Shown piece after piece: positions 1-36,604 of a stretch of 64,000 nucleotides of DNA. The notes below the pieces were generated by a model that was not told where the DNA came from, did no database searches, and saw only the letters and a program-made list of their open reading frames with translations. How positions within the stretch are numbered: the stretch's first letter is position 1; each line of letters starts with the position of its first letter. Origin of the DNA: Tubiluchus corallicola (Eukaryota; Animalia; Priapulida); the NCBI GenBank assembly GCA_030141605.1, contig JAQGDQ010000329.1:186001-250000 (forward strand). Reading direction: 5' to 3'. A program made the position numbers and the translations under genes.

Positions 1-389
1 TACAAGCCTCATAATGTCAGAGCACCTATGTTGTTAATACTGCGTTTACTACTAATTTCACTTTTGTGCTTTTGTGTACTGTAACACTTTCGTCTAAGAT
101 TTTGTACAGTTGATTGTTGTTTTACTACACAGGCTAACTAAACTCATTATTATTAATAGTGATTGCTTGCCTTTTGCTTTTGTTTCTAGGCATTTACAGT
201 ACATGATATTAATCTCATTAGTATTGATAAACTCTATGCTTCACTGTTAGTTTTTCTTAAAAAAATATTCCCTAAAAATGTTTTCACTAAAGTTTATAAA
301 ATTTGCAATGGCTGTAGGTTTCTAATTTAAAATGTGACATGTGCATTTAAAATACCTTTTATCTAAAATTTGTATATTGTTGTTTTCAG

Positions 390-12484: not shown

Positions 12485-13378
12485 ATGGCGGTGGTAATAC
12501 GTTTTGTGGAAAGTGCATCATTTTGTACTCAACTGATTTCTAAGAATAGTACACACCTAATCAAAGTTAATTTCTCAACCCATAAGACTTCCTGCTTTAA
12601 CTTTCATAAACAGTTTTTGCTAAGCACTCGTTTAAGAGGCTTGATGTCTCAGGCTGCAAAAAATATTTGTGGGTTTGGATTACGTGATTACCAGCTTTGT
12701 CAAATCGCGGCGAAACGAAGTGCACATTGTGAAACAGGCACAGAGGGCAAGATGTGGTATTCAAGTAGCAACTACAAAAATGATGACAGTTCAACTGAAA
12801 AGCAATTTAAAATGAAACTTATGGATGTAGAGCACATATTGTGGCCAAATATATGGAAAACAATAAGAAATCGAATCTACTACAAGCTTGTGCAAATATA
12901 TTTTGACAATAAATTTACAATATCAGAATTTGCAGAAGGTGCAAAACAGGCATTTGTCTACGTTTCTGATCTAATAGCTGGTGGAAGATTTGATGAACTT
13001 GAAGCGAAACAGCTTGTGTCTAAGGAGGCACTTAGTGAGATAAAGTCAAACTTTAGCAAGCTTAGTGTCCAGCAGAAAATGTTGTTGTCTGTCCCCCTCA
13101 CAGATATTTACTTAGCATTTCCTTATGAAGCCGGAATTATATACGATGAAGAAAGACAGGAGAGGTTTTTAGAAATCATGATGGTTTTCCACTGCTTTCG
13201 GGGATTTAAGGAATTCAAAGAACAATCTGAAGCAGACTTAAACATACAGAAACACAAATCCAACATTACCATAGCAAATTACCGATTTGTGAGAGAATAC
13301 ACAAAAGGTAAAGAAGACCAAGGCTGGACAATCAACCTGCTTAACCACATTCGACCAGCAGAACACACATCATATTAA
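12485..13378 (+). CDS. MAIP1: m-AAA protease-interacting protein 1-like (MAIP1/C2orf47), mitochondrial; intronless CDS, 297 aa
   Basis: Uninterrupted ORF with a basic, hydroxylated N-terminus typical of a presequence. Motifs YFDNKFTISEFAEGAKQAF, LVSKEAL, HKSNITIANYRFVREYTKG and WTI resemble the MAIP1 family (Tim44-like fold). AATAAA follows at about 13448. Confidence 0.8.
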   Translation: MAVVIRFVESASFCTQLISKNSTHLIKVNFSTHKTSCFNFHKQFLLSTRLRGLMSQAAKNICGFGLRDYQLCQIAAKRSAHCETGTEGKMWYSSSNYKNDDSSTEKQFKMKLMDVEHILWPNIWKTIRNRIYYKLVQIYFDNKFTISEFAEGAKQAFVYVSDLIAGGRFDELEAKQLVSKEALSEIKSNFSKLSVQQKMLLSVPLTDIYLAFPYEAGIIYDEERQERFLEIMMVFHCFRGFKEFKEQSEADLNIQKHKSNITIANYRFVREYTKGKEDQGWTINLLNHIRPAEHTSY

Positions 13379-14084: not shown

Positions 14085-17000
14085 TCATGAAGACAATACT
14101 GTCTGAGGTGGAGCCACTCTAGCAACTTTCCGATTTTCCTTCACAAACGTCTTTGGGCACTGCATCTCTGTCCAACTTATCGGAATCATAGCTACACCTA
14201 CATTAAAGCAAAAAAATGTTAGCCTAGTGACTACATGTGTATTCTCGTACCATACAGAGAACGGCATGAATAGGTATAGTTGAATGAAGCACACCAGTAA
14301 AAAATGTGTAGAGTTGTTGTTTATTCTTTGACATATCTTAAAGCATCCCTTATAAACAGACAGACTCGGTGGAAAATTTGAAAGGAGTAGATAGATGATA
14401 GAGAAGGTTTCCTAAGAGCTACCTAAGGCTATGTTAAATCACACAGACTATAGAATCACCTGTCCAGTAAGTTACAAAGACAGAATTATTTAGAAAAACA
14501 GAAAAATATATAATCGCCAATCATATCGAACTAAGACTAGCAGTTACAATCTGTTGTTTCAGGGACTAAAAGGCATTATGACATTTATCATTAAAATTAT
14601 TATCTGCACAGTAATACAAACCTGCTTCGCTGTGAGCTATTACCACTCCAAGCTCATTTTCAGCAGTTGTCAATAAATATGAATAGGCATCACCAAGTGA
14701 AAGCTAAAAGCAGCAGATAAAGTAGGATAACACAAAAAGCCTTCTTAATCAACGGGTTAGAAACCTAGCAAGCAATAAAATTTTGCTGATTCAAACAGAT
14801 AAACAGTAAACTCTGTGTAATTTGGATAGCTAGGAGCTAAAGAACTGTCCGAGTTGAGCGATAAATTGAGTTTGGCAAAGCTGCATGTTCGTGCATGCAT
14901 TTCTTGGTTGATGCACTGTGTGTTGAGTGTAAATAGTTATTAAAATAGGAGCCTGCTTCATGGCCAAATATTAACTCAGTTTGCTTTAACATGATTAATT
15001 CATGATTGGATCCATTTGTTTTGAATAATCTAAAATGCCCAGGCAATTCCACAACCACCTCACCACAGCTCAAGATGGAACAGCCCAATTATTATAATTA
15101 AGCAACCAGCAGTTTATATACTCGCATGCACACACAAAAACATGATCTGTGTTTATTGCAAAAGATAGTGTGTCAGGGCCTACTGAAACTGACTACAGAA
15201 GTCCAAGCAATAATACTGCAGTCAGAATTTCCGTTCTTCCGTTTTATTAAAAGGGTAAAATCAGTGAATTACTAGCATGCAGATTCCTCGGCAAGCAAGG
15301 TAATTTTCACATGTCACGTGAATAAATACCACTAGTAGTGTTTCTTTATTAGTTTTCTGATTATTTTACACCCCTACTAACGAAAAAGCACACATTCATT
15401 GTATTGACAATGTTTCTGCATGTCCGAGATAAGCAGAGCAAATACAATAGTTTTTGCGCAAAACATATTTTATGTAAGATAGAATCAAATAAGCTTTACT
15501 TAACAATTAACAATGCTTTAGTGTTTTTACATTTCGTTGATCTTTTAATAATACTTACTTTCACAAAAAAACTGTGATGAATGTGAAAGATTAATAACAA
15601 ATAACATAACCCTGAAGCCCTAGACATTGAGAAGGACAAATTTGAGTTGCACACTTTTCTGGTGTACAGCATGGGTGCCGCCTAATTTTAAAAAAATTGA
15701 CACAAAAACAAGCTAAGGGGTGTGGGGAAGCGCTGTAATCTCCCCCAGAAGGCCCGGGATGGAGCCCCCGCCACAAACGCATTTTCCTGTATTTTAAGCA
15801 CATTTTGGAGGCGTCAAATGAGATCTAAATTCTGGTACATAGATTTCTTCAAATGTGAAAAATTCTATATTTAATAAATATATTTTATCTACATTTACCT
15901 AGGTAATATTCATTGGATTCTATTGTAGTGGTCATATAACAAGTTTGTACTACACTGCAATGCGGCTGACCCATTACTTAAGCTTAATTTATTTAGTGTG
16001 AAGATTATCACCCAGCAAAAGGTGGATGTCAAACATAAAACTGATTTGAGACCGTTAAGTTTACATCTCACCCACTTTTCAAACAAAATTAAATAAGTTT
16101 GCGTGCATGCTAATTTTTTCCATCGGATACAGTTAAGCGACAGAACGTCTCGGCCACATATACATTTTGCTACATTTTAGACTATTTTGCGGTTGCTACA
16201 AGGTATTTCCTCAGGCGAGTTCATTAGTTTAAAACTCATTATGTCACCTCAAACTCGTGGCTCATAATTTCACTACTACCGTGAAAGGCCTGCCCCCCCC
16301 CCCCAATGCAGAAGTGCAGTTGCAATTAGCTAAAAACTATCTAGACAACGGAAATCACTGAGAAAGTCGACACTATGTAAGCAACATACGTAAACATAAC
16401 TTCACTATGCAACTCAACTTACAGCTCGGGTACTGCGCAAACAAACTAAGGGTTGATGCGTTTCTTCGTTTACTGCTAAAAAATTTTATTTAGCCATAAA
16501 AAATATTTTCTTAACCAATTCTGTGGACGCACGTGCATCGGTGCGTCCGTGGCACCCATGGTGTACAGCACTGTTCTCAGACAACAATTGGAAAAATTAT
16601 ACTATTTTTCCAAGCACTGTATACAGTATACACCACATGCAGTTTCAATTTACAAGACTGAAACAAGTGCAAACATAAATTAAAGACAGTCTCTTGCAAT
16701 GTTTTTATTACTTCTGAAGTTTTGATCATTAGAACAGATAAGCGTATTTTAAAGAAAAAGCCAAGACTCCTGGGAAGTTAGGCTTATTTGAATGTTTGCA
16801 ATGTTAGGAGAACTTAGTAATAAAAATGTGATAAACACTCTAAAATTAGCCATTTTAAAGTTGTGATCAATTCACGCTTGAGCACTCCCATTTTGAGAAC
16901 CCATTCTTACACCAATGACATGATTCATCGATTGAAGAAAAGCAGCGCACTGTCAATATCCGTCAAAAGTATAATTTTTTGCAAAAGATTGGATAACAAA

Positions 17001-20000
17001 TTTGTGATTTTTTGCATATATTAGGTACGCCACGTGAATTGGTTTAAGCAGCATGCTCTTACGGAAAGCCACAATGCGCTTACGAAAATCCACCAGTTAC
17101 ATCACAATTTTCAAGTGTATGGCGGCAACCACCGTGCCTGAAAATTTCTGTACAGCAGTAGTATAAATTAACTTTCTGGTTTATAGACAATTTTTGTCAA
17201 TTTCTTTGTTATATTTTTCTAAATTTAAGTGATGTACTTTCCTTTATTTCTCTACAGAAACAAAATTCTTGTCTATAAAACTTGTAAAGTTATAACTTTT
17301 GACAAAAGCAAAAAAATGAATTTAACAATGCAACTAATGACAGCATGCTAATGTAAAGCTCTATGAACAAAGGATACTACTCTGGCTAAAATGATGTCAC
17401 CGGGTCTGAAACTTTTGTAACACTCCACCTACAAAGACAACAAATAGCTGTATGGCGTGATCTATTCATTCAATAAACATAACAATAACATAAACCTTTG
17501 TTATATGCAGTTACGATAAGAAACCAAACAACATTTTTAAAAAAAGGATCAGTATTGCGTGTGTGCAAGTGTAAATAACAGTGATGGTGGTGGAATGGTG
17601 CTTAACGGAATAATGACCTTAAATACAGTATGGCAGCATAAAAAAAACAGAGTTAGGGTAAACATACTTTATCTTTTTCCGTTGCTCTGATGTCTTCCTT
17701 ACGTATTTGGCCTCTAAACGATTCCTGCAGTACGCTGTCTTCCACACACAAAATAGCACATTTGCAATATCGTTGATATACATGAGTAATCTACTTGTAT
17801 AAAAAACAGTTTTACTTTACATTTGAAGTTCCAAAGTGAAGCGATTATAAAGGCACTTTAAAGAAAGCTATTTTCAAAGACAACTAAGCTTATATGTGTA
17901 CATTTAAGTTCACAAAATTTTATACAAAGATAATAATACAAATTTAATGCATTTTCCTTTTGAAATACAATCACTGTTACATGACTGAAATTTCACAATT
18001 CCATCACATAACATGCATAATCTGCAGATTATGTAGTATAAAATAGTCATTAAAAACCATGTAACATCTTGTAAAATCAGTGAAAGTTTTCACCTTACCT
18101 TAGCTGTAACAATAGAACCAATGTGCGGTACAACCTTCTTTTCCACATCTCTTCTCACCTCAACAATCACTTTCTAATCATAAAATATAAAACAGCAATG
18201 AAACGGGTTTTGAGCACTATCTTTTGCATACTAATAGTCTATATGCTATGCAGAAAATAGTGCAAATAATGTTTAAGTAAACAATTCACTACTTTTACAT
18301 TACTTTTGCACTTTTCCATTTTCTTCTTTTGGCTTGGTTTGGTTTCAAAAATTTGGTAATTGTGGATTCGTTCCATCATTAACTGATAATGCCTTAATAA
18401 AAATAGTTAAATTAATGACAAAAATAATCTAATTAATTGTAACTATACCAGCATGAGCAAACCAACACTTTGAGGTGGTGGTTTGGTTGGTGAAAGCTAT
18501 TAGAATGAAATAAATCTTGCTTCGACCAAAGGTATTAAGGTTTATAATCTAAAGGTACAGTATGTAACAGGCTTCAACAGTATTCAACAGGCTCAGTCAT
18601 AATTCTGTCACATAAAATTATTTACTTTTGGTCTAGTTTGACTTTAGAAATTTAACAATTTTCGATTCATTCTACAGCTTACTCGATAGTTATTTTTCTA
18701 TCGACATGCAGCAGAAACAGTACTTAAAAGTAGGGCTGTCATATTTACATGTGTAAACATTAGCGTTTAGTTTAGTCACTCTAAATGTTTATTGATTTTT
18801 GTAAACAATAAATGATTGCCATTACCATCACACTGCTTCTGAAATGACTATACTAGTAGTAGATGAAACACTTGCTTTTTTAACAGGGGGTATCTACAGT
18901 GATAATCTACTTTACTCATATATTATAATTTTTTTAAATGTTATTTTCATCTGCTAGTAGCTAATATGTTACTATTTGATTGTGCATACCATCAGCATGA
19001 ACATTTGTATATTTAACTCAGAAATTGAAGGGTTAAACTACTACAAGAGATAAACTTGTGCCATTTGAAATTTTGAACACTCCGAGCTTCTTTAATTTCC
19101 TGACATGGCTTATTAGTGAAATTTAATGTTAAGTACTAAGCAGCCTGGCGAGCCTGTACAGCCAGACTGCTGCTTTTTGATACTCATAGGCTATCGAAGT
19201 ATAATTTACCGCTACTATGGGGGAAATATTTGAAAGAATGGTTCACAAATTTCATGCCAAAGCAGCAGCTTCCCTCTCTGACTTTCATATTTTTACTATA
19301 CGGCAGCAGACAAATTTGGCAGAATTTCATATTAAAATTCTTTAACAAACCTTTTAGTAGTAACAAACAATTGATAGCAATGACTACAATATTTAAAACA
19401 GAGCCACATGCAACCGTGTTTACCCACATAAAAGTTTATGTGTTAGGTAATCCAGATGTTACACTTGAACATAACATCAAAAGAATAACCAAATAGTTTA
19501 GGTAATAATAGCAGTTATTAATTAAGGCATCTACATGGTAAAGTTCAAGCTAGATCCTACAGATAAAAGTAATTATCAGCACAAATTTATTCTACATAGT
19601 CCCAAAGAATTTATTGCACGAGTTGGTACCTTATACCTCCACTAATGCATAAACCTTGGCATATTATTTACATATAGAGTGTAAATGTAATCGTTCAATT
19701 TAAAAAACCTGACGGCCCTACTTATAAATCCTATTAACAACTATTAATCATATACAAAAAATACTTTGTCATCTTTTTCATCCGACATGTGAACATAGCC
19801 AGCAAGACTTGCGTAGATAAAACCATGTCGACTGTAGGCTCCATTGCCCGGAATATGGTCATCACCTGAACGACAGATTCTCTGACCTAAACGAACATCA
19901 ACACTAACATTACAAAAGTTTTACAAATATTCATGTAAAAACAATAACATGCATTTTAAGCTTACTCGTTTACAATTTGTTTGCTTATTTAGTAAGCTAT

Positions 20001-22771
20001 ATATGCTTTCAAAAAATATAAGTATTGTAAAATGTGTGTGTAATATAATTTGCTCACATTTATAACGTAATTATTAAAACAATCTTATAATACAGTAGGC
20101 GCCGCTTAATAGACTCACTTTGGGACCCACGTATTTTGACCCAATTAACTGACTGATCCTATTAACCGATGGGTGTAGCATTACAGGTATAGAAGTATGA
20201 ATCATCAGCTTACTACGCACTGCAAAGTTTTTTAATGAATTTTAGAAATGAAGTAATGCCTAAATTCTTTTGTGCAGTTAAAAATTAGAAAAAATATTTT
20301 AAAATATTAATTTATATAAGTGGATTAGCAATAAATTAAAAAGTATACTTTTCTAAATCACAGACTTTTCTCGAAGTCCGTTTATTTGCAAAAATTAAAA
20401 AATTTCTTCAAAGTCGGCTGCTTCATTTTCTCGCGAAGAAGTTGGCCCACAAAGTTCTCGTAATTATAAAAACGTTGAAAATCTGTTGTTGCGTGCCACT
20501 AAAATAGTTCTGAATCGTCTGCTCACTTACATTGCTCTTATTTGCTGTACGACGTTTCCTCTTGTAAGTCACAAGGAATACCAGCTGATTATACTGTACC
20601 TGCATCTTTGACTGTTAACTCATTAAGCCTGAAAGCTTGATTTGCAACGAGAGCATCAAAAGGAAACCGCTAGGCAAGTGATCAAATGTTTAGCTTCCAG
20701 AAATTCTTTGGATAACAGTGGGCGAGCAGGTAACAGATTCAGAGCAAAACTGCTATGCTAGCATATTAGCGCATGATAAACGTACCAGCTTACAAACAAA
20801 ACAATACTAAATACATGATTATTTCTGTATACATAGCGCACAAAAGGGAAGTAAAGATGACATAAAAGTAGGAAAGGCTCTTTGGGCACATACAAATATC
20901 TTTTTTTAAGTAAGTGAATGAGAAATACTGAGTCAATCATGCGGAGTTATTTGAGTCAATTACCTACAGTTTTTGTGTATATTTCAATAGAATGCCGTTC
21001 CAGGCATTTTTGAGTCAATTAAGCAATTGAGTCTATTAACCGTGAGTCTATTAAGTGGTGCCTACTGTATTACAAAATATATACTTAATAGCTATTTAGA
21101 AAATTATGATAAAGACAAACATAATTTAAAAGTTTATAGCACGAACTCACAAATTGTGCCATAGTTATGACAACTTATCGTCTAAATGACACTTTATTAT
21201 TTTATTTCCAGTTTTTTTATTTACTTATGTTAATTTGTTGTTACATATGAATTTATCATGTTATATTAAAAGTTTTTCCAATGGCTTCAATGCTTGCTAA
21301 AGCAAGATCTGCCATTCCCTGAAGTTTCTGTGATGATTAATGATCAATTAACATAGCAGTCGTCCAATGGCAATGTTATCATAAAATGACAAATTTAAGC
21401 TAATTACTGACTGTCACAGACAAGTTTATTTTACATATTACATACAATATTGTATATAAATATTACACTATTTATATATTTTATATATATATATGTATTG
21501 ATTTTTATTTTCAATGATGACAAATTCATTGTTGATAGGACAATAATATTAATACCAGGGTTTGCTCATGGGTGTTAACTTAGGATGGTATGGCACATTG
21601 CTCGGAATTCAAGCCTAACTTTGAAATTTAACATTATTAAATTTCTATTCTTTCTTTCATTTACGAACTTGTTAAATCGGTGCAGAATTTGAGTAATGCA
21701 ACATCTGCTTTAGGCTTATTTTGCTAACTTTGGTTTGTTTGCATAATTTGCACACTTCTGTTTTGGCCTAAAATTCTGCTGTGTGTTACTGTGGATTTTT
21801 TTCTTTGGCCAAATATTTCTGCAGAGAATTTGTTTCCTGTTTTTAGGTATTCTTGTCTAACTGTTTATGGTCACTACCATACAATGTGTGAACTACTTAT
21901 CATTTAGTCTTATATTATTTTAAATGTTTGTGCTTTTTCAAGATATATGCTACAAACTATTGTACACAAGTTTTGTGTCAATCAAACCTCGCTTCACAGC
22001 ATGTCTCTGTTTAGACATTGTCTATACTAAAAGGTGAAATTTTGTTGGCTATTATCATTTCTATTTCTGTGGCTGACAGATAGCAGTTCACTGTTTTGCT
22101 CTACCCAAGACCTACAGTGCTGTTAAAATTGCCCAATGTTGAATGCAATGTATGCCTAAGCACTGGTTGAGAAGCAAATAAGACTAAAAGTGGCTACCTA
22201 GCAATAATTTATTTATAAATTGTACTGACGACTTTACTTTGGGAAGGATTTTATTTTTTGGTGTGACCACTTTACATAATTATAAGTTTTTTATTACTCA
22301 GGAACTGGTTAATTTCTTTACGTAAATTCAATGCACTTTTTAACATGGGAACGCCTACACTAATATTTTTAAACAAGTCACGCCATCGCTGTATGCACTG
22401 CTATAATAGATTATAACAATTCTAACAGGACTAAAAATATAATTTTAATTACTAATTATTAATACTTTTCGTTTTAGTAGTACTTAATAGTAACACTACT
22501 GCTATGCCTGGCACGCTATTCACCAGTAAGTAAATGGCGTGTAGGTGTTAAGTAAGTAAAGTAAGTAAATGGCGTGTAAGCAAATAGTGGAGGCAATTAT
22601 TGGTACTTGAACTTTTCTTTGACTTTACCAGGGCAAAATGGACATTGCCACAAGGAATTGAAAGAAGTGAAAATAATTGCGATACTTCGATTATAATGAT
22701 GTTTGTTATTTTTTTTTAATTTTAATGAAGAAAAAGTCACCAGGAACACAAATTGTCAAGTGTGCAGACAT
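14085..22771 (-). CDS. EXOSC1: Exosome complex component CSL4 (EXOSC1), 198 aa, 7 exons
   Basis: Minus-strand exons 22771-22741 (MSAHLTICVPG), 19886-19765 (GAYSRHGFIYASLAG), 18173-18099 (VPHIGSIVTAK), 17790-17668 (FRGQIRKEDIRATEKDK), 17428-17378 (YKSFRPGDIILARV), 14703-14622 (SLGDAYSYLLTTAENELGVVIAHSEAG), 14197-14085 (MIPISWTEMQCPKT..E.RKVARV). Total 597 nt, all phases consistent. Confidence 0.96.
14704..17377 (-). other. Probable U12-type (minor spliceosome) GT-AG intron of EXOSC1
   Basis: The donor reads GTATCCTTT (minus strand 17377-17369), the U12 5' splice-site consensus. The 3' end has only a degenerate branch-like sequence (ttatcctac) about 20 nt before tttag. Confidence 0.7.
15670..16560. 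mobile_element. Non-autonomous hAT-type DNA transposon (891 bp) in EXOSC1 intron 5
   Basis: Terminal inverted repeats CATGGGTGCC...GGCACCCATG, flanked by a perfect 8-bp target-site duplication GTGTACAG (15662-15669 and 16561-16568). An 8-bp TSD with short CA..TG TIRs is typical of hAT elements. Confidence 0.88.
20093..21067. mobile_element. Non-autonomous Tc1/mariner-pogo-type element (975 bp), full-length copy
   Basis: 26-bp TIRs CAGTAGGCGCCGCTTAATAGACTCAC / GTGAGTCTATTAAGTGGTGCCTACTG with TA on both flanks. A homologous copy starts at 34398. Confidence 0.9.
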
Positions 22772-22867
22772 GCTCTTTACAGATGAAATTTAGGAACGAT
22801 TGATGCATCGTCACTTCCATATTCCACAACGATCTTTCACTTTTTTCAACTTTATTATTGCACAATT

Positions 22868-22987
22868 GACTACGGCCAAATCACGTTGAAAACACCGGTT
22901 CTCGTCTGATCACCGAAGTTCAGCAACGTAGAGCCTAGTTAGTACTTGGATGGGTGACCGCCTAGGAATACCAGGTGCTGTAAGCTT
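22868..22987 (+). rRNA. 5S rRNA-like sequence (head of the SINE; probably not a canonical 5S gene)
   Basis: GACTACGGCCAAATCACGTTGAAAACACCGGTTCTCGTCTGATCACCGAAGTTCAGCAACGTAGAGCCTAGTTAGTACTTGGATGGGTGACCGCCTAGGAATACCAGGTGCTGTAAGCTT is a full-length 5S with recognisable box A and box C. The terminal stem is imperfect and only TT follows. Confidence 0.8.
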
Positions 22988-23270
22988 GCGGGATGCCCAC
23001 ACTGTATCTCGACACTAAGCGGAGGAGCTGCACAAGCAGCCAACGGCTAGAGGGCGAGGAGGTCAAGTTGCCCAACGACCATGTGTAGAGGAGTAAACCT
23101 TCCAAATCAGGAGTGGAGCCCCGAAGGCGGACCAGTGCACCCTGGAGATGTCAAGGATCAGATTGCTCAGCCACAGTCGGCACTGCGGCTCCATCAATGT
23201 GATCAATAACTGATTCTCTTAGTGCACACTCCATTGTCTTCCGAGACAGAAGGATGCCAACCATCCAACC
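22868..23270 (+). mobile_element. 5S rRNA-derived SINE (SINE3-type retroposon), 403 bp
   Basis: A 120-nt 5S head (22868-22987) is followed by a GC-rich ~280-nt body with no oligo-T terminator and a short-repeat tail (CCAACCATCCAACC). It is bounded by a perfect 14-bp direct repeat ATTATTGCACAATT (22854-22867, 23271-23284). Confidence 0.85.
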
Positions 23271-24986
23271 ATTATTGCACAATTCAATTTCAATTCAATT
23301 TCAATTTATTGCTCTAATACATAAATATTGTGTACATTGGCAAAACACAGTACAGTACATGTAAATTGCACAAATACATTAATGTGCCATGGCAAAAATT
23401 GTCAATTACAAAAAAATGATAGTATAAGAACAAATACAATTATGCAACATTGAAAACCATGAGTTTGTACAACTTACTTAAATAGCCTACTTAAATTTAA
23501 TATAAAATTATGTGATCACTACGCAGATTTAGTACCAAAGCAAGGGGGCGATAATTATTATTCACCAGATGCTCATTGCTCACCCTTGCAGTTAGCCAGC
23601 TACCCCTTCACAGTTGATACTTGAATATACTTGAAAATTATGATGTAACTGATGGATTCTGTGACTTTTGACATGCTGCTTAAATTAATTCAAACTTCTG
23701 CAGCTTACCAGTCCTAACATTCATGCAAAAATATCACAAAATTAGCTATCTAATTTTTTTTGTAATAACTTATTATTATATTTTTGACGAAAGCTTATAG
23801 TGTATTACTTTTTTCAAAATGAATAACGTCATTAGAAGACGAATGGGCTTTGAAAATAGATGGGACTTTGAAAACAGAGCGCCCAAGCCTGAAGTGATTG
23901 TGACTTCAAATTTAAAAGTGATTTTACTAGTTAAGCGAGGCACTTATTACAATTTTATTACTAAATCCTTCTAACATTTTCGCAAACATTGAAACAAGCC
24001 TGTCTTCCCACAAAGCTACAGGTCTTTCCCGCAAAGATTTCTGCATCGCATTTTTTATATCATTTTCAATTCACATAATTTGGACACTATAAAAATGCAT
24101 TCTGCCCAGTTTTGCTAGTTTCTACAAAATTATATTGATCCGTATTTTCCTCAAAATTGGATCCAATTAAATGTGCTAAAATGTATCAATGTTAAAATGT
24201 TATTGACATTAAAATTAATTATTTCGCAAATTTCTAATTATTGCAGAAATTGGGGAATGAAATATCTGTGTGGCCACATTGTGCGCTTGGTTGCGAGATA
24301 AAGCAAGTCCTGATTTAGTTAATAATTAGATTATGGATAAGTCACATGTCAAAAAATTTGAGCTTCGATTTTATTAAATGAAATGCAATTCTTAGGTAAT
24401 CAAGCATGGCAAACTCAATGGAGGCAATATTAAACATTACTAGTGTACGTTACTTCTGGCATGCTCAAGCTTTGGTGATGGATATTATTACAAATCTCTG
24501 ACGTGGTTTATTTTTATGAAGTTTTACACTAGAACTATGAAATATTTGTTTTATGAAAATATTGGCTTGTTTTTCTTTCATTGGTGATGCAGTCGTGGAG
24601 TGCAGCTGGAAATCAGTCAGTAAGTTGGGAAAAAATAACCCACATTGCAAATTTTCAAAATGCGCAGCAAATTTAGGAAATTGTGAAAATCACAGGATTA
24701 TTAAATTTTGTTGTGGTTTTTTGTATTTGTTTGTTTCATCCTTAAGTTTTTGAGCTTCAAAGTTAATATATTATAGCTGACCAGCATATACTACGGTCCC
24801 ATAATTTTAGTTTAACATGATAGTTTGTGGTACTCAGTCAGTAGTTTCTATTGTCAATTTGTCATAGTCGCGCCTGTGGATAGTGTTTACATTCACTTTG
24901 TACATTCAATGCTGATAATATATTCACAGTTGATGTGATTTAAATTTCACTGTGTTACTTGATAACCTCAATACGAGAAAGTGGTG

Positions 24987-25857
24987 ATGTCAGATAAACA
25001 TGGTCGTTCATCAAGTTTAAATATAGTGGAGGTAATTACGGAGTAACATTAGCCAATGCTGGGATGGCTATTTTCCGAGGTTTAGTTAACAGATATCTGA
25101 GATAGTGTTGCATGACCAAGGCATAAGTTTACTACGTCACACTACTTTTCATTAGTCATTACTCCTTTAAATTAATTAATTGATCATCACTGCATCACGT
25201 AATTTAAAAGTACTTGAGTTGGTGTGTGTGATTGGATAACGTATGTTTTTAGCCACCGCTTTCCATTTGTCTGGCTATCTGTTCATTGTACTAATTTCGT
25301 GTATATATTACTTTGGGATAAAAATGAAATGATGTAGTTGGTTTTGATTTGAGACATGTTACTGTTGCCATTCATCTCTATACAATATTACTGCTAACAA
25401 AAAGCAGCAAAATGTAGCACACAGAGTAGCTGTCAGCTGCGTCACAGTTGGACGGACCATATCAAACAAGAAAACATTGGTCAAGCTTCTTGCTATGAAA
25501 CCTTGCTGCTTTGTTTTTTATTTTTGTTCTGTTCTTTGAGATTCTTTTGCATCAGACTTTACTTTCCAGAATATGCATTGCTCTTTGTGTAATATAGTAA
25601 ACTTTGTAAGAATTAGTATTTAGCCTGGTAGGCCTCTTTTTTGTTTCTCTCTGCAAAATGTACTTAAAATTTAAATTTTATTGATGCTGGCATTGACCCG
25701 TATGTGACCTTGAACTCAGCCTTGTTTGAAATGTTCAACCTCCACCTCAATACAAAATTTATTTGGGGCTACAGCCCAGATCATTACTATAATTTTTCAT
25801 AACTATTTTTGCTTATAAGGATTTTTTAAAAAGACCTACCATTCCCACTTTACAACT

Positions 25858-25899
<42 letters not shown>

Positions 25900-28800
25900 A
25901 AATAGTTAAGTTTGATTTGCATATTTTGCAGGCTTCCACTGGCTATGGCTCAGAATTTGAATATGATAGTGAACGAGAAAGAAAACGGTATGGTAATTAG
26001 ACTTCATCACAGACTGTATAGTGACATTAATGTCTGCTAAATACTAAATGTTTTTTATATTAGGAATAGGAATCCCCGAAGGCACATTTTCATCAAGCAA
26101 ATCAAAGCCAATTTTTTATGCTTGATTGTCATTCTACCGAAGTTCATCCGCGTAATCTGTGTTGTACTGAGCCTAGTTCCGAATAAAATATCAAGTTAAA
26201 GTGGAACATCTGAACAGAGCCAAGCCGAATTTTTTACTGAAACCGAATTGAATTTTCTTGTAATATATTACTTAGAATGCAAACATTCCAGCAATTGAAA
26301 GGAATTGTAAAATTTGTGACATTTAAATCGTTTTAAATTGGTAGTGGTTAGTGATCTCTGTAAAATTGTTCTGGTTGCTGAATCTGTGTTTTTATTTAAT
26401 GATTAATGTAGTAAGGCATTACATATTTTAAAACATTTTAATTATTTAAAAAGCAGTCTAAGCTTTCACTAATTTATTTTCTCATGTACAAGCGAATACT
26501 CTGCGACCACACTATTGTGCATTGACACTCATGAGTTGGATAGGGACCTACTGATGGTGCATCACACTTTTCAAGTTGTACAGAAACAGTACAAAAACAG
26601 AAACAAAATGTCTGGTGTTGTGCCATGTTGGCTGTTTACTATCACCTTTTTTCTGATAAGTTTTTGAGAGTAGCAGGCAAATATTTGGTCTGTTTAATAT
26701 CATTTTCACAAAATGTTACCATAAGCTTTTTCATGTTACCACGATAATATTACCAATGATTGATGATGATCGTAAAAAGGTCAAAGGTTAAGTGTACCAA
26801 ACAGCGTATTTGTGTACACTTGACAATGCCTCCCAACCCAAGCTACTATAATACTAACAGTTTTAACAGCTAACTGGATAACTCTACGCACAGACTAATG
26901 CATAATTAAAGTCCACTTAAAACAGCTGAAGTTACTAAACTGATATGGGAGACGGCTTTGTTTACCCACATTTCACGTGACTATTGTACTTAAGACACGT
27001 TGCTGTGGTACATTTAACCTTTGACCTACAGCAACTGTGAGTGTGCACAACGAAACTGTGAAATGATATACATACATACTTACGTTATATGTGCATTGTC
27101 ACAAAGACATGCTTTCCAGCTGTTTAACTTTGCAACTTTTTAGTGTACAGTCCAGAAAGTATGCCAAAATTCAAAAGCCTTTTCCTCTTTTAATACCGTT
27201 ACAACATAATTTGTTTATATTTCGCCAGACGTGTTTGCTGTTTACATCTTTTTTCTGCTGGATAGATGTAATTTTACATGAATGTCACCATTTTATATCA
27301 GGTTAGTTATGCATGTCTATTGCTACTACTTTTTCTAACTTGTATGTTCAGTTGATGCTCAGGTAACTTTTTCTTCTCATTTCAGTTTTAAGAGGAATGA
27401 TCTAACTGCAAAAGAACCCATCCGAGCTGAGAATACTTGTTCGTCGAAGAAACATTATGAAAAAGAGCTTAAGAGGTTGGCCCATTTTAACAGTTTGGGG
27501 TGATGATTTATAAATAAAATGTAATTTTGGCAATCCTAACAAACCATGTAATTATATTTAAAGCATCACTTTAGTCATAAAATGAAATTCTAGTACCTGT
27601 AGAAGTTGAGCACCAGGTTCATTTGATGTATTAATCCCTGATTGCGTTATCAGACCAGTCAGTTTTATCATCTTATTTATTTTTTGAGTTGTTTTGAGCA
27701 TAACAATAATTGGTTATTCTTATTCATCCTGTCCTCTGTCTGTTTGCTCATGCCACTGTTTTATTTGTCACTTAGTAAATTAAAATTAGCAAAAATTTGC
27801 TCATTTATTCTAACTATACCGGTTCATATCTGTGTCTGACTTTGTCTAAGAAATCCATCATGTAAAATGTTATTTTTACAATTTTTTAAGAATGAAACGT
27901 CGAGCTAGGAGTGCATCCCCAGTGCATGAGCGAACAGACAGGGTAAAGTCGCACAACCGAAAGAAAAGACATCACCATAATGATATGAACCAAGAGCCTG
28001 ACAGTGACGAACATGAATCAGACCGGTCTTCACACAGAAAAAAACGCAAGAGGCGATCGCCAATCATAAAGAGAGAGCCTTCGGCAGACCTAGATCCCAA
28101 TCTGCCAATCAAAACTGAGCCTGTGGATAATGGTTATGGTAGACGTTCACATTCGAGGCAGGATAGCCAAGATGTTAGTCGGCTTCATGACAAAGACGAT
28201 AAAAATAAAAAGGCAAAATCAACTGAAAAACAAAAGCCAAATTTCGAAATCAGTGGTAAACTTGCAGAGGACACTAACACATATCGTGGAGTTGTAATAA
28301 AGTACAACCAACCGCCGGAAGCAAGAAGGCCCAAAACTCGTTGGAGGTTGTATCCGTTTAAGGGAGAAGCTACACTCCCTGTGCTGTATGTACATCGTCA
28401 AAGTGCGTATCTACTTGGTAGAGATCGACTAGTGGCTGATATACCTGTTGATCATCCGTCGTGTTCAAAGCAGCATGCAGTGTTGCAGTTTCGGCTGGTG
28501 AACTATAACCGAGAAGATGGAACAGTTGGTCGTAGAGTCAGGCCATTCATAATTGATCTGGAGTCAGCTAACGGCACGTTTGTAAATAACAAAAAAATTG
28601 AGTCCAGGGTTTATGTAGAATTGATGGAAAAAGATGTGCTGAAGTTTGGCTACAGTTCTCGTGAATATGTGCTGCTGCATGAACAGTCCAAAGATGATGA
28701 AGCTGATCACGAGGATGCTGACTAATTTGACTTATTTGCTTATTTCAAATTCTTATCTTGTGTTTTTGACTAAGAAGTTAGACATTCTTAAACATGTGTA

Positions 28801-31800
28801 ATTAGACCTTTGAAGTCTAGGGCTCTTTAGGATAAAATGGCAACATCATTGCAGCAACTTTTATCGATAATTGAATTGATCTGTCTATGTCTCCATTATT
28901 AAATGAAAATATGTGAACAGTATGTCCTGAAACATTTTAAACATTATTGTTTGTATAGTTTCAGTTAGATCGCATGGCATTTATGAAAGTTATATAGTTT
29001 AAACGGGCAATTTGGTCATGGAACTATTGAAACATACAACCTGTCAATTCGACTTCTAACTTGAATATTTGTTGGCTAAGCTGCAAAACTTATTATTTTT
29101 TCTCAGTTTTAAAAATTTCTGTTTTATCCCAATCGTGTCACTATGTGAAATGTGTTGTTGTCGCCTGAACATTTTTTGCTGTAAATAACTAATAAATGTA
29201 GAAAGAAACATGAGCTGTCTTGTGTTAAACATATCACTTAATTTGCTGATGTAGTGCATTTTGACGAAGTTCTATAGCAATGCAACAACTTTGTGTATGC
29301 AAACATGTAGTACAGTAGATTCTATTCAAGTGAGTCGCAATTTTCCATAGCTTCTTATTTCCAATGTTTATAAACAACCGATGATACACCTTCCTAAGTA
29401 TGGCCTTTGATGTGCTAACACTAAAATTTTTATTCGTAGAATTAAGAAAGTTTCATAACTACAATATACATACAACACAAAATTATCATTAAAATGTTTC
29501 CTGGCACAGATATAGGAACTTCCGAAAATAAACAAGCACTTTGAATTGACTTGTACACTTAGCAACACCTTAGTAGCAGTTCATTAAAATCAATAAATAG
29601 TTCGTTACAAGAATTTGCAAATTTTGTGAATGTTGCATCAGAACATTTCTTAGTGGCATCATCCAGTGACAGTTAGTTACAATTTTTTGTAGCAGTCTGG
29701 AATGCAATATGTGTAGCAATTGTTTAGTTTTATAACCAAAACTTTGAAATAGATTTAAAATATCAATTCATGTGTACGCACTTGTTGCCACTCACTTTAA
29801 TGATTAGTCAAACGCTTCCAGTTATTAAATTGTCCATAAAATGTGCCAAGACGTTATACTTGAAATCACTGTGATGGCTAATGAAGGCGGCAGCATTTGT
29901 TTTGTTTTTGACAGTCATAACAGCATGAATTTATATCTTACTGGCATGCAAAATTGCTACAGCTATTTTTTTCAGTACTTGTAGAATTGTAATTCAGAAT
30001 TTCTTTGTTATAGGTACCAAGGGCAGCCATACAAATTTAGCACTTCTGGCTTAGATGCTGTATCCATTTTGGTAAACTAGGGACAAGATTTCTTCAGTTA
30101 ACATCAAATTCACAGAGGAATTTAGTGGCCCTTTTGTGGTTTATCATTTTGAAAAGTGTAGGCCTTTGTTAGTACATCATAAATTGGCTTTACTGTTTGT
30201 TTAACTGCTTGAAGCATAGCAGACTTATCATGATAGCAGAATAATGTGTTATTTGATTATAATTTAATACTGATTATGTGCAAAATGTTTCATGGTTTCT
30301 ATTAGTAAAACCTCCTTATACTGCTCGCTATGCGACTCTAGAAAAAGCTGACATTAAGCAAGTTTGGCGTGATGATGAGATGCATTAATACATACATGTC
30401 TATGCAAATATGGACATTTTCTTTTATCAAAAAATTGGGTGTTAAACGAGGTTAGCATTATAAATGCGGGCTATATAACGAGGTTTGGCTGCATTATATT
30501 TTAGTAATTCACAACATTTTCTTAACACTTCTGTCAGTTCACAAGGCATAAACTCTTAGTCAACAACTACTTACTTTATTATCCTGGTGCCAGAGAAGAA
30601 CATTTCAAACGAGATTCGTAAGTTTTAATCATTCTGAAACTCATGTTATTTAACATTGTTGATCGTCAAACTAACAGTTATTAAATATAGATAGACTAAA
30701 TTTTTTATACTTACTTTATTCAGTCATTCTCCTTTATCAAATGGTGTCGGCCCACTTTAAAACTGCACGCTTTCATTTCAGAATAAGTGAAGTTTTACTT
30801 GTGTTTTCTATTCACATGGTGATTGAGGATTGATTTTTTCTAAACAAGAATGCCAATTCTTTGCTTCTGGGTTATGTGTTAACAAACTGTGTAGGTTAAG
30901 GAAAAATTCATGATGGGGTTTCACTTTAACAGCAGGAAATATTTTTGGTTTTCCTCATCCTGAAAAAATTGTCATTTTCTGTGCCTTTTAATCCCAAAAT
31001 TCAACGTGTTTAGGTCAAAAGACAAAAAGGACATAGACGTCATCAGAGAGCATCATCAGTTTCTCTGGCGTGAAGATGACGATACTGACAGTTTGTGGTA
31101 AATTTCTAACAAGGTTTTGCCTAAATTTGTGATAGTGATTCTTACTAAAACTTACGTTAAACTCAAAAGGCAGTCAGTAGCCGTATGCATTTAACAGTGG
31201 TGTTTAGTACATTGTTTACACAATATTGTTTCACTCTTGTCAAAGTTTATGTTGGCATCTATAGGCATCTATGGTAAAGTAAAGGTGCAAATGGCAAAAC
31301 TGAAAAATTAACATTAAAGTGGTTCACAGTAAAATGGTAAACAATAAGCATGGAGATGTTTTTCGTAAATAATTCTGAAAGTAGTCATTTTCTTGCAGGG
31401 AAAAGAGGCTCGCAAAGAAATACTATGACAAGCTTTTTAAAGAGTACTGTATCTGTGATCTTTCTCGATATAAAGAAAATAAGGTGATTAGTGATGTGCG
31501 GGTGCACTTAGTTGTTATACAACTGAAGAATCATGGTTTCTTAGTTTGTTATTCAAAAAAGATGTTTTCTTTGTATCCTTGACTGTCAGTCATTTTACCT
31601 TAACTAGCACAAAAAAATTATCTATAATTATTCATTTGCAGTTGATACTTCTTGTAGGTAATGTAACCTGTGTTCATTCGTATAACATTATTGCATCTAC
31701 ATTGTTAGCCATCCTAAAAATCTCAGTTTTATTCTTAAGGTTGCAATGAGATGGAGAATAGAAGCTGAAGTAATATCTGGAAAAGGTACGTTTGATATCC

Positions 31801-34800
31801 CATTCGTTGTACATTCATTGTATTGGGAGTTGCAAGTTTTGCAAAATATTTGCAAGTTGCAGGTCTGCGCATGGTCAGAAATGTCATTGTTCTACAAGAA
31901 TCTATGGGACTCATTTTTAAATTGTATTTATAAATATACAGTCTAGCCTCGTTATCTCGCCCCTCGTTATGCCGCCAAACTCGTCTCTCGCCATAGATTT
32001 TACCAGGACGGATTTCCTGCTTTGATATTTACCTCGTTAAATTGCCACCCTCGCCACGTCATGCTAGGATGAGTACTTAGGTAAACTATATTCGTTATGT
32101 CGCCAAACAGACAAACTCAGAGGTGAATCGATCAATACATATACTGCGTGTGGATCAATATAACCGCGGTATGTAGACAATGCTGCTGTACTCAACAGAC
32201 AGACATAATTAATCTAGTGTGTGTCTCACCAGGATTAGATTAGGAGTGCTGTGGTTGGTTAATGCGCAGAGAAACTAAAGCGTCACCGATATCCTTACTC
32301 TATAACACCAAAGCTGCGTTTAAGTTTGAGTTTCCACAAAGTGTGAGCAACTTTACATGATGTCTCTGAAGCGAAAACTGTTTTGTCTTAATCCTGAACA
32401 AAAAAAGGAAATTTGTATTTATCATACGAACGGGCAGGCCGCGGGCAGCAGCGATGAAGATGACACGGGCAGTTGCGATGAAGACGATGGCTCATCTCAT
32501 GTATCGAATGACCAGGCAGCAGCAGCTGTCGACACACTGATGCGATATTTTGAACAGTCTGACATCGTCACAAGTGACGATATTCAAGGATTGTGTGTAT
32601 CATCAATGAAACAGTCGTCTCTTCTGAATTATTTCAGTCGTCAGTATCTCATTTGTGAACATTTCTAAATCTTTTGCTATGTTTATTGCATTTAAGTGTA
32701 TACTCGAAAAAGGTTTTTTAAATAAAAAAATAACATTCTAAGATTATTTTTATGACATTTTTTTCATTTCTGATTTAATGTTGATTGGTATCATAATGCG
32801 AAATATATTTTATATGTACATAGAGGAACACTATGTTAATCAACTATTATGTACAGTATGTATATACATATAGACTAACTTCGTTATATCACCGTTATCT
32901 CGCCATACTCGCCTCTCGCTAAAAATTTGCCCTAGACAGACAGGGGCGAGTATACTGTTAGACTGTATATGTTAATACAATGTTAATGGCCCTGTTGCAG
33001 ATATACGCTTCGCTCGGCGATGAGGTATTGAAAAAAAGTACAAGCGCTCACGGTACGTCGTCCACACTTAGTGCATTTATATAATGAATAAACTTTCTGT
33101 GCACTTTTTACATTAGTTGTCTGACTAGTTTATATGACCACCAGTGAACACAAAAAAGGGACCTCAGAACGAGTCAACGGACTGCCGTGCAGTCACATAC
33201 AATATACACTTAGTGTGCCAATAGGAAAGAATAAAGTTTTGCAAACTGATGTTTGATGGGAAATGCGTAAGATTTGGGTTATCATAATAAGTCTTTTCAC
33301 AGTCTTCACAGGTCAAAGGTTATGTGTACCATATCAGTGTGTCTTAACTATAACCATCACACAGCATGTGCGTAAAGCAAAGCCATCTGCTCTGTACCAA
33401 TTCAGTAATTCACGGTTGTTTTACATGGGCTTTACTTAATTATGCATTATTCTGTGCGTAGAGTGATTTACTAGCAGGATCTTGCTTGGGAACAAGAAAA
33501 AATTAACTGGGTGAGGTTCTCGGTAGCTGTTAAAACTGTTACTATTATAATGGCTTGGGCCATGAGGTGTTGTCAAGTGTACACAAATGCGTTGTCTGGT
33601 ACACTTAACTTTTGAGCTTTTCGCAATCATCATCAATCACTGGAACTGTGAAAAAGCTTATTATGTTAAGTCAAACTGTTATGCTTAAAGGCACTTAGAG
33701 GTTGATGTGGGTGTGAATACTTAATTTTAAATAAGGAATAGGCAGAGTTTCCTTACTGTGTATGACCTGAAAGCTTGTAACGAGGCAGATTCAACCCTGT
33801 GAGTTTACTCGACATTACGTGTCATTTGACAATCAAAGATGGCAAATGACAGCTTCGAGTCACTTGATGGCAATTTCTAGGACATGTCTAAGAAAAGCTC
33901 GATGCTATATTTAATAAAAAATAATAAAACCACAATGGCTCATTTTTTACTAGTCAAGGTTTCCCACATTTCTAAGCTTTTGTAGGACACTTTCAATGCG
34001 GAAATAACAAGTGCAACAACACAGAATCGCTTAGGTCTTGGGAGGTCAATTTTGGATATGTGGAACATGGAGAGAAGAAGAATGCTCTAGTCAAACTAAG
34101 TATGTAACTATGATATTTCATTAAACTGAGACAAAACATATCTTTCTTACTAGAGATCCATATATGAATAGACTATAGGCTTATTAACACAGATCGAATA
34201 ATTCAAAGTAACCCACTCCGCATTTACCCAATGCCACAAATAAGTAAACACAATATACTGGGCACTTATAAAATTGCACTGGTAACTGTGATTAATGATT
34301 GTATCAATGATTAAATGTATTGTATGAACTGCATTGATTGTAGGCATATAGTATTCTATTATATCGTACGGTAATGTATTGTTTTAAATCAATAATACAG
34401 TAGGCACCGCTTAATAGACTCACTTTGGGACCGAAGTGTTTTGACCCAATTAACCGACTGAACCTATTAACCGATGGGTGTAGTATTCCTGGTATAGAAG
34501 TTTGAGTCACCAGCTTACTATGCAAAAGTTTTTAATGAATTTTAGAAACGAAGTAATGCCTAAATTTCTTTGTGCAGTTAAAAATTAAAAAATGTATTTT
34601 AAAATATCAAATATTAATTTATATAACTGAATTAGCAATGCATTAAAAAGTATACTTTTCTAAATCAGACAAGTCTGTTTATTTGCAAAAATTACAAAAA
34701 TTCCTTCAAAGTCAGCTGTTTCATTTCATCGCAAAGAAGTTGGCTCACAAAGTTCTCATAATGACAAAAACATTGAAAATCTGTTGTACGATGCATAAAT

Positions 34801-36604
34801 TCTCGTAAAACACTTAGTGCTTGGCGTGCTTAAATTGTTGGTGATGCCCACGTTTCCCCGCAAGTAGCTTCGTCTGTAGTTTTGCCTAAGCTTCTGCTTG
34901 CTATTGTGACACACTTACTGTACTGTACCTGTATCCCAGGCATAATGGCAAGATCTACCTGGTTAAACTTTCTGGCAAAGACAGCCTCAAAGGCAAACCG
35001 CTAAGCAAGTGATTAAATGTTTAGCCTCCAGGAATTCTTGGGTAACGAGGTTAATTGCAGTAGATGTGCTGGTCAAAGGAAACCATCAGGCTAGCATATT
35101 AGCGTATGATAAACGTTCCTGCTTACAACAGACCAAACGGTACTTAACATGATTATTTCTATGTATATTATAGGACAAAAGCGAACTAAGATGATGTGAA
35201 AGTCATAAAAGCTTATTAGTCACACGAAAGTGTCTTACTGAAGTCAGTTATTGTATTGTATTGAATAATGGCTGCATAAAATGATCGTGACTCTCTTTTC
35301 TATTGTAAATGCAACTGAACCTGCTTAATAAATCAATGATTTTTGTGTTATGATAGTTCAATTAGTCAGTGTGGATGGTATTAATTGTGTGATTAGCTTT
35401 CATTTGGTTTGTTCTGCTACTTTAGTTTAGTATTTTCATGTGCTCCTTGAACAACAGTTTTTTTCAAATACCAGTTTTTTATCTGTGATAAATTGCTGTT
35501 CATTAACTTCCTTATCATACACAACTGTTATTCAGTATAATAGTAAATAAAGATTATTCTATCTATCTAGGAATTGGGAAAGTGCATTAATAAAAACCAT
35601 TAGCCATGTGCTTTGCTTTATTTTTGTAGGATTATGCCTGGACTGCTCTTACATGCTGAATTATCATCATAAGTAAGTAAACATTTTCTCGTATAGTTAC
35701 TGAGTTAAATATCTTAGCAATGTATTGTGTTTTAGGTTAATTCATTTTATTAGTAGGCTGTATTTTTTGTTCATTTTCCAGAAGAAAAGATGTAACAAAC
35801 AAGCGAAAAAAGAAAATCCTTACTCACCATGGTGTTGATGAATTGACATCTACACCTGCTACCACTTCGAAGGGTAAGCATCATGGTTTACATCTCCCAG
35901 CAAATCTGTACAAGAAAACTTGTTCACTTTTGTAAAAATTATAAATCATCTGGATTTTTTCAGACATTCCGTCTTCATCAAATAAAGGTACAATTTCATC
36001 AGAACAATCTGAAGATGAACCAGACCAGGTTGCAGAGTCTGCAGAAGATATATGGAAAGCGCCAGTTAAATTCACAGAAGATAAAACAAGGTTACATTTC
36101 ATTTACTTTCTGCATTTTGCATTCTTTTAAAAAATTTTGGTAATAGTTAGGGTATGAACAGAAACTGGAAAATTCTACTTGCACAAAATTTTAAAATTAA
36201 ATTGTTTGGATGAATATATACTTTATCAAATGTTTCAGTATTTGATTAGAGTGTATCAATATATCAAAGAATATTTCGCTACCCCAAGAAGACGTGTCAT
36301 TATATATCATGAATGCATTAAAAGTAGTACATACTTCTTTTGTTTTGAAGATTCCTGGTAAGGGAAAGGTGCTGTTTGTTTGCTTTTCTGCAATGTTAAA
36401 TGTGTCTTTATGTTCTACTTCTAATTATGTGTAAGTGTGAACAGTTTCTAATGCCTTAATCAAGTGCAGTAACGATGACAACCAGTAATTATCCTTTTAT
36501 TCTTTGTAAGCTTATATATAATGTTGTGCCGTTGTTTTATTTACTGTCTTTATTTTTTTAGGAATGAAGAATTTGAAGAATATTTTGAAGACCTGTTCTT
36601 ATAA
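24987..36604 (+). CDS. FRA10AC1: Protein FRA10AC1 homolog (spliceosomal C-complex-associated), 316 aa, 13 exons
   Basis: Exons 24987-25031, 25932-25987, 27386-27475, 30014-30059, 30538-30617, 31014-31097, 31399-31483, 31740-31785, 33986-34099, 35630-35672, 35782-35873, 35964-36090, 36562-36604; 951 nt, open throughout. Peptides DIDVIREHHQFLW, WEKRLAKKYYDKLFKEYCICDLSRYKENK, RWRIEAEVISGKGHFQCGN, LRSWEVNFGYVEHGEKKNALVKLRLC and C-terminal EEFEEYFEDLFL* match FRA10AC1. Exon 1 is inferred from ATG, phase and a GAG|GTAATT donor only. Confidence 0.93.
25864..25893. repeat. (TA)n microsatellite
   Basis: About 15 TA units just upstream of FRA10AC1 exon 2. Confidence 0.9.
26720..27026 (+). mobile_element. 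MITE-like dispersed repeat, copy 1 (inverted relative to the copy at 33311-33665)
   Basis: Internal inverted repeats GGTCAAAGGTTAAGTGTACCA...TGGTACATTTAACCTTTGACC. The body aligns by eye with the reverse complement of 33311-33665. Confidence 0.7.
27892..28725 (+). CDS. SNIP1: Smad nuclear-interacting protein 1 (SNIP1/Pml1, FHA domain, RES complex); single coding exon nested on the same strand in FRA10AC1 intron 3
   Basis: 277-aa ORF with a basic/RS-like N-terminus, then KPNFEISGKLAEDTNTYRGVVIKYNQPPEARRPKTRWRLYPFKGE and the FHA motifs LLGRDR..ADIPVDHPSCSKQHAVLQFR, IIDLESANGTFVN and KFGYSSREYVLL. It is preceded by an acceptor (tttttacaattttttaag|A ATG). Candidate poly(A) signals: ATTAAA 28898, AATAAA 29191 and 29592. 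Confidence 0.96.
   Translation: MKRRARSASPVHERTDRVKSHNRKKRHHHNDMNQEPDSDEHESDRSSHRKKRKRRSPIIKREPSADLDPNLPIKTEPVDNGYGRRSHSRQDSQDVSRLHDKDDKNKKAKSTEKQKPNFEISGKLAEDTNTYRGVVIKYNQPPEARRPKTRWRLYPFKGEATLPVLYVHRQSAYLLGRDRLVADIPVDHPSCSKQHAVLQFRLVNYNREDGTVGRRVRPFIIDLESANGTFVNNKKIESRVYVELMEKDVLKFGYSSREYVLLHEQSKDDEADHEDAD
30060..30537 (+). other. Probable U12-type intron of FRA10AC1 (intron 4)
   Basis: The donor GTATCCATT is one mismatch from GTATCCTTT. A branch-site-like TTTTCTTAAC ends 11 nt before the exon start, with no long pyrimidine tract between. This is the U12 3'-end architecture. Confidence 0.7.
30303..30492 (-). mobile_element. ~190-bp pogo/Tigger-type MITE family, copy 1
   Basis: Ends TAGTAAAACCTCCTTATA...TATAACGAGGTTTGGCTG. 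The reverse complement matches the copies at about 60655-60808 and 62281-62420 (shared atatttgcataga..tgtatgtattaat core). Confidence 0.7.
31939..32965 (+). mobile_element. Internally deleted pogo/Tigger-type DNA transposon with a transposase remnant ORF (32357-32668)
   Basis: Termini TA-CAGTCTAGC...GTTAGACTG-TA with repeated subterminal CTCGTTAT/CTCGCC motifs. The ORF joins a CENP-B/Tigger-like start (KRKLFCLNPEQKKEI) to a Tigger-like end (AVDTLMRYFEQ...KQSSLLNYFS) and lacks the DDE domain. Confidence 0.8.
33311..33665 (-). mobile_element. MITE-like dispersed repeat, copy 2
   Basis: GGTCAAAGGTTATGTGTACCA...TGGTACACTTAACTTTTGAGC; reverse-complement homolog of 26720-27026. Confidence 0.7.
34398..35245. 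mobile_element. Second, right-truncated copy of the 20093-21067 element
   Basis: Starts TA-CAGTAGGCACCGCTTAATAGACTCACTTTGGGACC and is colinear with the 20093 copy for about 850 bp. No right TIR is visible, so the end is approximate. Confidence 0.85.

Follow-up and report, generated by a model that had tools for sequence, protein, structure and literature searches.

A 5S rRNA-headed SINE of bipartite RTE design, probably an undescribed family, in the priapulid Tubiluchus corallicola

Analysis of a 64,000-nt stretch of the Tubiluchus corallicola assembly (the window) confirmed a short interspersed element at 22868-23270 on the plus strand, 403 nt long and bounded by direct repeats, which sequence comparison identifies as a genuine SINE3 belonging to the bipartite-RTE subtype, a published design. 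We are confident in the following explanation: the element is a copy of an abundant, dispersed SINE with the order 5S, RTE 5' piece, RTE 3' piece, for which RNA polymerase III is the likely transcribing enzyme and a related, low-copy host LINE the likely source of the copying machinery. The family is probably undescribed. A first-pass annotation, made from the letters of the window, had assigned the element to SINE3 and proposed insertion by LINE machinery; the assignment was borne out by a 5S head, the lack of a T4 terminator, a LINE-derived 3' tail, an exact target-site duplication (TSD) and dispersed copies, and LINE-mediated insertion was likewise supported.

The TSD is a perfect 14-bp repeat at 22854-22867 and 23271-23284 (plus strand), as had been reported. 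Its 14-mer occurs twice in the whole window, with a chance probability of about 1e-6 over 30 offsets, and its initial two letters may be tail sequence rather than TSD. The short-repeat tail CCAACCATCCAACC was found at 23257-23270, and pooled host contigs give the family a 3' end made of an AAC repeat. About 10 nt 5' of the TSD start is a T6 run (22841-22846), which agrees with the RTE insertion signature of a T-run before the insertion site, as given in passages of PMC6007223; comparable T-runs are found at 3-4% of random sites and the SINE offers one site, and we regard the run as mild support for RTE-type insertion. The absence of a T4+ Pol III terminator inside the element also held, the first T4 being at 23666. 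Neither a second copy of the SINE nor a reverse transcriptase (RT) fragment was found in the 64,000-nt window.

The 5S rRNA-derived head, with its internal promoter region, occupies 22868-22987 on the plus strand. It matched Rfam RF00001 at 22868-22986(7), covering model positions 1-120 completely with 97.3 bits, which upholds the earlier claim of a full 120-nt head, and it was the sole Rfam match at gathering score in the window. Within its head, the window copy departs from the family majority at 22921, 22937 and 22983. Position 22921 is within box A of the 5S internal promoter, and the family majority there carries the letter of the Rfam model. As judged from the head, RNA polymerase III probably transcribes the family from this internal promoter; the window copy may not be transcribed, because its box A is altered.

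The body (22988-23270, 283 nt) has a GC content of 0.55 vs 0.30-0.38 across the window. The size of about 280 nt and the GC richness described earlier were therefore correct, whereas the description of the body as unrelated sequence was not: its alignments indicate that it is a non-coding 5' plus 3' derivative of an RTE-type LINE, LINE-derived almost end to end. The comparison is with L008, an element on a metagenome contig from another sample than the host, which was among 14 loci recovered by scanning metagenome contigs with a degenerate 3' motif and matching that motif by construction. The 5'UTR-derived segment of the SINE (22988-23139, plus strand) begins just past the predicted ribozyme of L008 and lies outside the search motif; window positions 22992-23138 match the L008 5'UTR (2035-2186) at 124 of 152 positions (82%, E 2e-36), with a score of 160 vs a maximum of 27 in 100 shuffles. 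The 3' segment (23151-23258, plus strand), comprising the last ORF codons and the 3'UTR, matches the ORF end and 3'UTR of L008 (5773-5872) at 77 of 109 positions (71%), and with the search motif excluded scores 37 vs a maximum of 30 in 300 shuffles. In translation this segment still reads SRIRLLSHSRHC, the end of the L008-type C-terminal motif, up to a stop at 23211-23213, followed by a 3'UTR part of 45 nt in which a 5-bp hairpin is predicted at 23235-23248. The first-pass annotation had expected the SINE 3' end to be shared with a LINE, and such LINEs were found: besides L008, the element L015, recovered by protein search and hence independent of the 3' motif, matches at 77% over 95 nt and itself terminates in an AAC repeat.

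Between the two segments is an 11-nt deletion junction (23140-23150, plus strand) that is probably the leftover of a later 5'UTR stretch, judging by a match of 9/11 to L008 at about 2337-2349 that is not significant alone and is equalled at L008 4862; loose ends of host contigs fall at 23139 and 23151. Bipartite-RTE SINEs are recognized by a LINE 5'UTR piece joined to the extreme LINE 3' end, and the 82% and 71% matches to L008 identify both. An Rfam search of the body at E<=10 returned nothing, and its predicted fold was only modestly better than that of shuffled sequences (z -1.8).

L008 encodes a single ORF of 1082 aa with the Pfam domains Exo_endo_phos and RVT_1, corresponding to an apurinic endonuclease (APE) and an RT. 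The longest ATG-started ORF upstream has 54 aa, and 46 nt separate the stop from the element end. Members of the RTE clade have a single ORF with APE followed by RT, no ORF1 and a very short 3'UTR, and the single APE-RT ORF, missing ORF1 and 46-nt 3'UTR of L008 correspond to this architecture. A C-terminal CxxC..SRxGL..H...C motif was found in 97/120 homologues (the best 120 of 924). In addition, a 5'UTR motif at window positions ~23088-23133 is common, by eye, to Repbase RTE-12_AMi in portions of the PMC5786205 supplement. L008 is thus classed as putatively RTE-type from its architecture and 5'UTR motif rather than from a tree including named RTEs; the best 120 of its 924 homologues included no named RTE reference, and a PDB search for RT relatives returned L1 and R2 only.

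The element at L008 1856-5872 is apparently complete, RTE-type and open in its ORF, and no clear TSD fixing its 5' end was found. Its family is widespread: the best 120 of 924 homologues include named ones, 62-73% identical, from lancelet, snail, oyster, shrimp and sea star. The 82% identity of the L008 and SINE 5'UTRs would fit horizontal transfer, but RTE 5'UTRs this conserved between distant animals are described in passages of Kojima (2018, PMC5786205). What genome contigs yielded was limited to fragments of related LINEs (L015-L017), from the ORF or the 3' end, plus three distant RTs; none added a 5'UTR, and scans of viral contigs for related elements gave nothing usable. L015-L017 are animal-type RTE fragments on short contigs of an Alcanivorax assembly and a Cohaesibacter MAG, and are probably host contamination.

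L008 positions 1856-2027/9 fit an HDV-like double pseudoknot under our own descriptor, with P1 of 7 bp, P2 of 8 bp, P3 of 3 bp, L3, P1.1, P4, and a J4/2 containing the presumptive catalytic C. The descriptor was composed after the L008 sequence had been seen; it gave 1 match in the 14 loci plus the window (both strands) and 0/500 in dinucleotide shuffles. An Rfam search of L008 yielded no ribozyme match, and the descriptor found no ribozyme fold in the SINE. We regard the L008 5' end as a predicted HDV-like ribozyme. Ruminski 2011 is reportedly the primary paper on RTE ribozymes. Sections of PMC6765202 and PMC3774820 report HDV-like ribozymes at RTE 5' ends, and the Discussion of Kojima (2018, PMC5786205) puts forward the suggestion that a ribozyme would truncate a SINE head. 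The RTE part of the SINE starts at L008 2031-2035, 1-5 nt past the last P2 pair, and host contigs at 80% identity leave L008 1750-2033 almost uncovered. A 5S join placed just past the predicted ribozyme fits Kojima's idea of ribozyme exclusion, the ribozyme prediction being that for L008.

Abundance and dispersal were assessed in X1, X2, X4 and X5, out of six listed host runs from two studies, four of which contain the window stretch; X1 and X2 are from one sample, which may be the source of the assembly. Contigs were aligned at 80% identity, and the summed contig depths given here are not copy numbers. In X1 the flanks had a depth of 166-210, whereas 22870-23245 formed a sharp-edged plateau of 0.7-1.8 million; over the same plateau, depth rose from 9-11 to 75,000-163,000 in X2 and from 8 to 33,000-88,000 in X4. 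At 23261, 65 X2 and 22 X4 contigs leave the element into long unlike sequence (agreement ~0.5). The join of 5S and body is bridged by contigs with 18-19 differences from the window copy, and the 5S 3' end stands directly before L008 2035 in 10 X1 contigs and 8 X4 contigs. These contigs show that the SINE family is abundant, that its copies are dispersed and that 5S and RTE are joined at a fixed point. In X5, a run with the same species label, 22964-23245 was without cover, in contigs that cannot prove absence. No joint skipping the element was present among the 15 of 48 joints listed, and left-junction contigs reach only 28 letters into the element.

Contigs also depart from the window copy at 23139 (73 in X1, 65 in X2 and 8 in X4), their onward letters following the L008 5'UTR, and depth over L008 2176-2317 in X1 is 380,000, against 26,000 in the bin that follows. 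There is an abundant longer form that keeps ~150 nt more of the 5'UTR, in a piece of ~310 nt vs ~150 nt. This may be the main form of the family, and depth and loose ends, rather than any single contig, suggest that it is also 5S-headed; the short junction of the window copy may mark a subfamily or a private deletion. Host contigs further match a related LINE in its 5'UTR, over the endonuclease and RT regions and at the 3' end, covering at >=80% identity 21/30 bins of L008 in X1 and 23/30 in X4, with depths in covered ORF bins of 58-3,500 (X1) and 2-170 (X4). As read from depth, the host has a related low-copy LINE, and SINE, longer form and partner LINE are found in the same runs. The number of X6 contigs aligning to L008 was 0, which is not evidence on expression.

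These contigs also bear on other accounts of the element. A one-off chimera, formed by a template switch of the RTE reverse transcriptase onto 5S rRNA at this single insertion, has comparable chimeras of LINE-1 as precedent, and the internal junction of the window copy (23139/23151) may be private to it, but the identical 5S/RTE join recurs in many diverged contigs of two samples; we rejected a one-off origin of the join on these grounds and consider it very improbable. The single-copy outcome that the first-pass annotation named as fatal to its own reading did not materialize either, the join being present in many contigs with many 3' flanks. The other outcome it named, a body that is the spacer of 5S rDNA, amounts to a displaced unit of the tandem 5S array. 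The complete 5S portion would agree with such a unit, yet no T-run follows the 5S and no terminator occurs before 23666, the window holds a single copy with a TSD, the body is LINE-derived, and the 3' flanks differ from copy to copy. This candidate was rejected, and we find it barely credible.

A subtler possibility concerns which part of the element does the work. The mobile unit could be a bipartite non-autonomous RTE, transcribed by RNA polymerase II or by read-through, in which the 5S is a fixed passenger with an inactive promoter. Substitutions are present in the head, and type-1 promoters are said, in passages of PMC3272025, to need upstream signals. A passenger role is nonetheless unlikely given a full-length head at 97 bits to the 5S model, head depth equal to body depth in host contigs, a majority letter at 22921 that agrees with the model, and an element without a T4 terminator. 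The reading that we prefer remains a likely Pol III-transcribed SINE with a LINE partner.

The age proposed for the window copy requires revision. It had been called young and recently active, a reading not borne out by its at least 12 differences from the family majority in 403 nt (at least 3%), box A included. At 8/9 listed body differences the majority letter is the L008 letter, which indicates that the changes are derived in the window copy or its sublineage; majority letters at 23182 and 23187 are those of L008. From the exact TSD, the insertion could be moderately recent. Overall, the window copy is a shortened (~150 nt less than the longer form), mutated and probably passive member of its family.

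The origin that we propose would begin with an internal deletion in a LINE, leaving a non-coding 5' plus 3' derivative, followed by a template switch or recombination in which 5S replaced the first ~175 nt of the LINE. The replaced ~175 nt would be the region predicted to form an HDV-like ribozyme in L008. Such a ribozyme, if functional, would cleave the 5S promoter from every transcript, and a join past the ribozyme would for that reason be the form able to spread. Mobilization would then proceed by binding of the LINE protein to the SINE 3' hairpin and tail, nicking of the target ~10 nt past the T-run, and target-primed reverse transcription that would produce the 14-bp TSD.

The SINE is head-to-head with EXOSC1, a minus-strand gene (matches to Pfam ECR1_N and EXOSC1, and to PDB CSL4), and points away from it. 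The first coding exon inferred for EXOSC1 (22741-22771, minus strand; MSAHLTICVPG, phase 1) was the sole candidate in 19900-27800. Its ATG, at 22771, lies 83 nt from the TSD, and the 5S starts 97 nt away, in accord with an earlier placement about 100 bp upstream of the start and antisense. The interval was then described as lying between EXOSC1 and FRA10AC1, which was not upheld: a SNIP1 ORF (27850-28725, plus strand, FHA), the next identified gene there, separates the SINE from the first FRA10AC1-like exon detected. FRA10AC1-like exons were found from ~30545, with Pfam matches at 30964-34104. SNIP1 is probably the divergent neighbour of EXOSC1, and it may be nested within FRA10AC1, the exons of which are located only from ~30545. 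SNIP1 is in one uninterrupted ORF, with AG immediately preceding its ATG (27892). No weight was given to an ETS-like GGAAGTGAC at 22810-22818, which has one further occurrence, inside an ORF. The position of the SINE near EXOSC1 is a lead only.

Other features of the window include several repeats. A second, lower-copy repeat with a (TTCAAT)n run abuts the right TSD (23285-23527); AATAAA precedes (TTCAAT)n on its minus strand, and it resembles the tail of another non-LTR element. Its depth in X1 was 3,300-7,500 vs 178 beyond, and a partial match was found in X5 too. The SINE insertion point seems to be the tip of the tail of this repeat. Another repeat has two copies, 65% identical and on opposite strands (23625-24010 and 16771-17120), and 23669-23762 is very deep in host contigs. 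Introns of EXOSC1 and FRA10AC1 contain a repeat pair at 20087-20890 and 34392-35224 (86%/73% identical) that may be a MITE; short inverted matches occur at 20082-20118/21042-21078. At 56379-57225 there is a perfect 423-bp tandem duplication (100% identical) that is either very recent or an assembly artefact. A MAIP1-like ORF (12380-13378) had 2 matches at E<=1e-20, one at 81%, and Priapulus caudatus at 66% over 64% of the query, which by itself points to a priapulid or a related animal as the likely host; SNIP1 homologues gave no such placement.

Several described SINEs resemble this one. CoeSINE5 of coelacanth is annotated as "5S - RTE5' - RTE3'" in sections of Kojima (2018, PMC5786205), and like the window SINE has that order with no other body and a short AAC-type tail. 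It differs in being 225 nt long with RTE pieces of ~50 nt whose sequence is unrelated by eye, whereas the window SINE has a 5'UTR piece of ~150 nt (~310 nt in the longer form) and a 3' piece that includes the last ORF codons. Ped-1 of springhare, with BovB as its partner, shares a 5S head and a bipartite RTE body according to passages of PMC3747384 and PMC5786205, but is mammalian and BovB-derived, the likeness being one of description, not sequence. HaSE3 of the moth Helicoverpa, as portrayed in parts of PMC3272025 and PMC5786205, is also from an invertebrate and has a 5S head, RTE 5' and 3' pieces and a host RTE partner; unlike our family, which has no extra body and appears abundant, it has an extra unknown body, a derivation from the tRNA-SINE HaSE1 through exchange of the head, and a reportedly low copy number. 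SINE-1_Pmo has a similar architecture, as far as the passages that mention it indicate. OegopSINE and the Ceph-SINEs, together with the RTE-12_AMi 5'UTR, share by eye the motif at ~23088-23133 and the longer-form continuation in portions of the PMC5786205 supplement, but these SINEs have tRNA and CORE heads and different 3' ends. In passages of that supplement, 2/12, 0/6 and 0/2 short window or L008-type motifs were matched, and closer RTE matches are possible. Passages of Kojima (2020) record SINE3 from vertebrates and some insects. Within a literature scope that lay outside subscription papers and the sequences of Repbase, Dfam and SINEBase, we found no priapulid SINE and no SINE with its join mapped to a ribozyme boundary. 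What is new here is the priapulid host, and a join 1-5 nt past the predicted HDV-like ribozyme of L008.

In this family a rare SINE class has arisen independently, in an animal group for which few repeats have been described. Annotation would mistake many of the copies for 5S rRNA genes. Two ideas of Kojima (2018), that SINE bodies come from deleted LINEs and that the ribozyme is left out, are testable in one genome, because SINE, longer form and partner LINE are all in the same host runs. A bolder proposal, on which our judgement is evenly balanced, is that this is the first SINE3 from an ecdysozoan of priapulid grade, that its abundance is unusual among 5S-headed families, and that it was born by a swap of the parent RTE's HDV-like ribozyme module for 5S at the ribozyme 3' boundary. 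If true, it would provide a natural case, at nucleotide resolution, of the rule that a SINE can keep its promoter only by dropping the self-cleaving ribozyme of the LINE.
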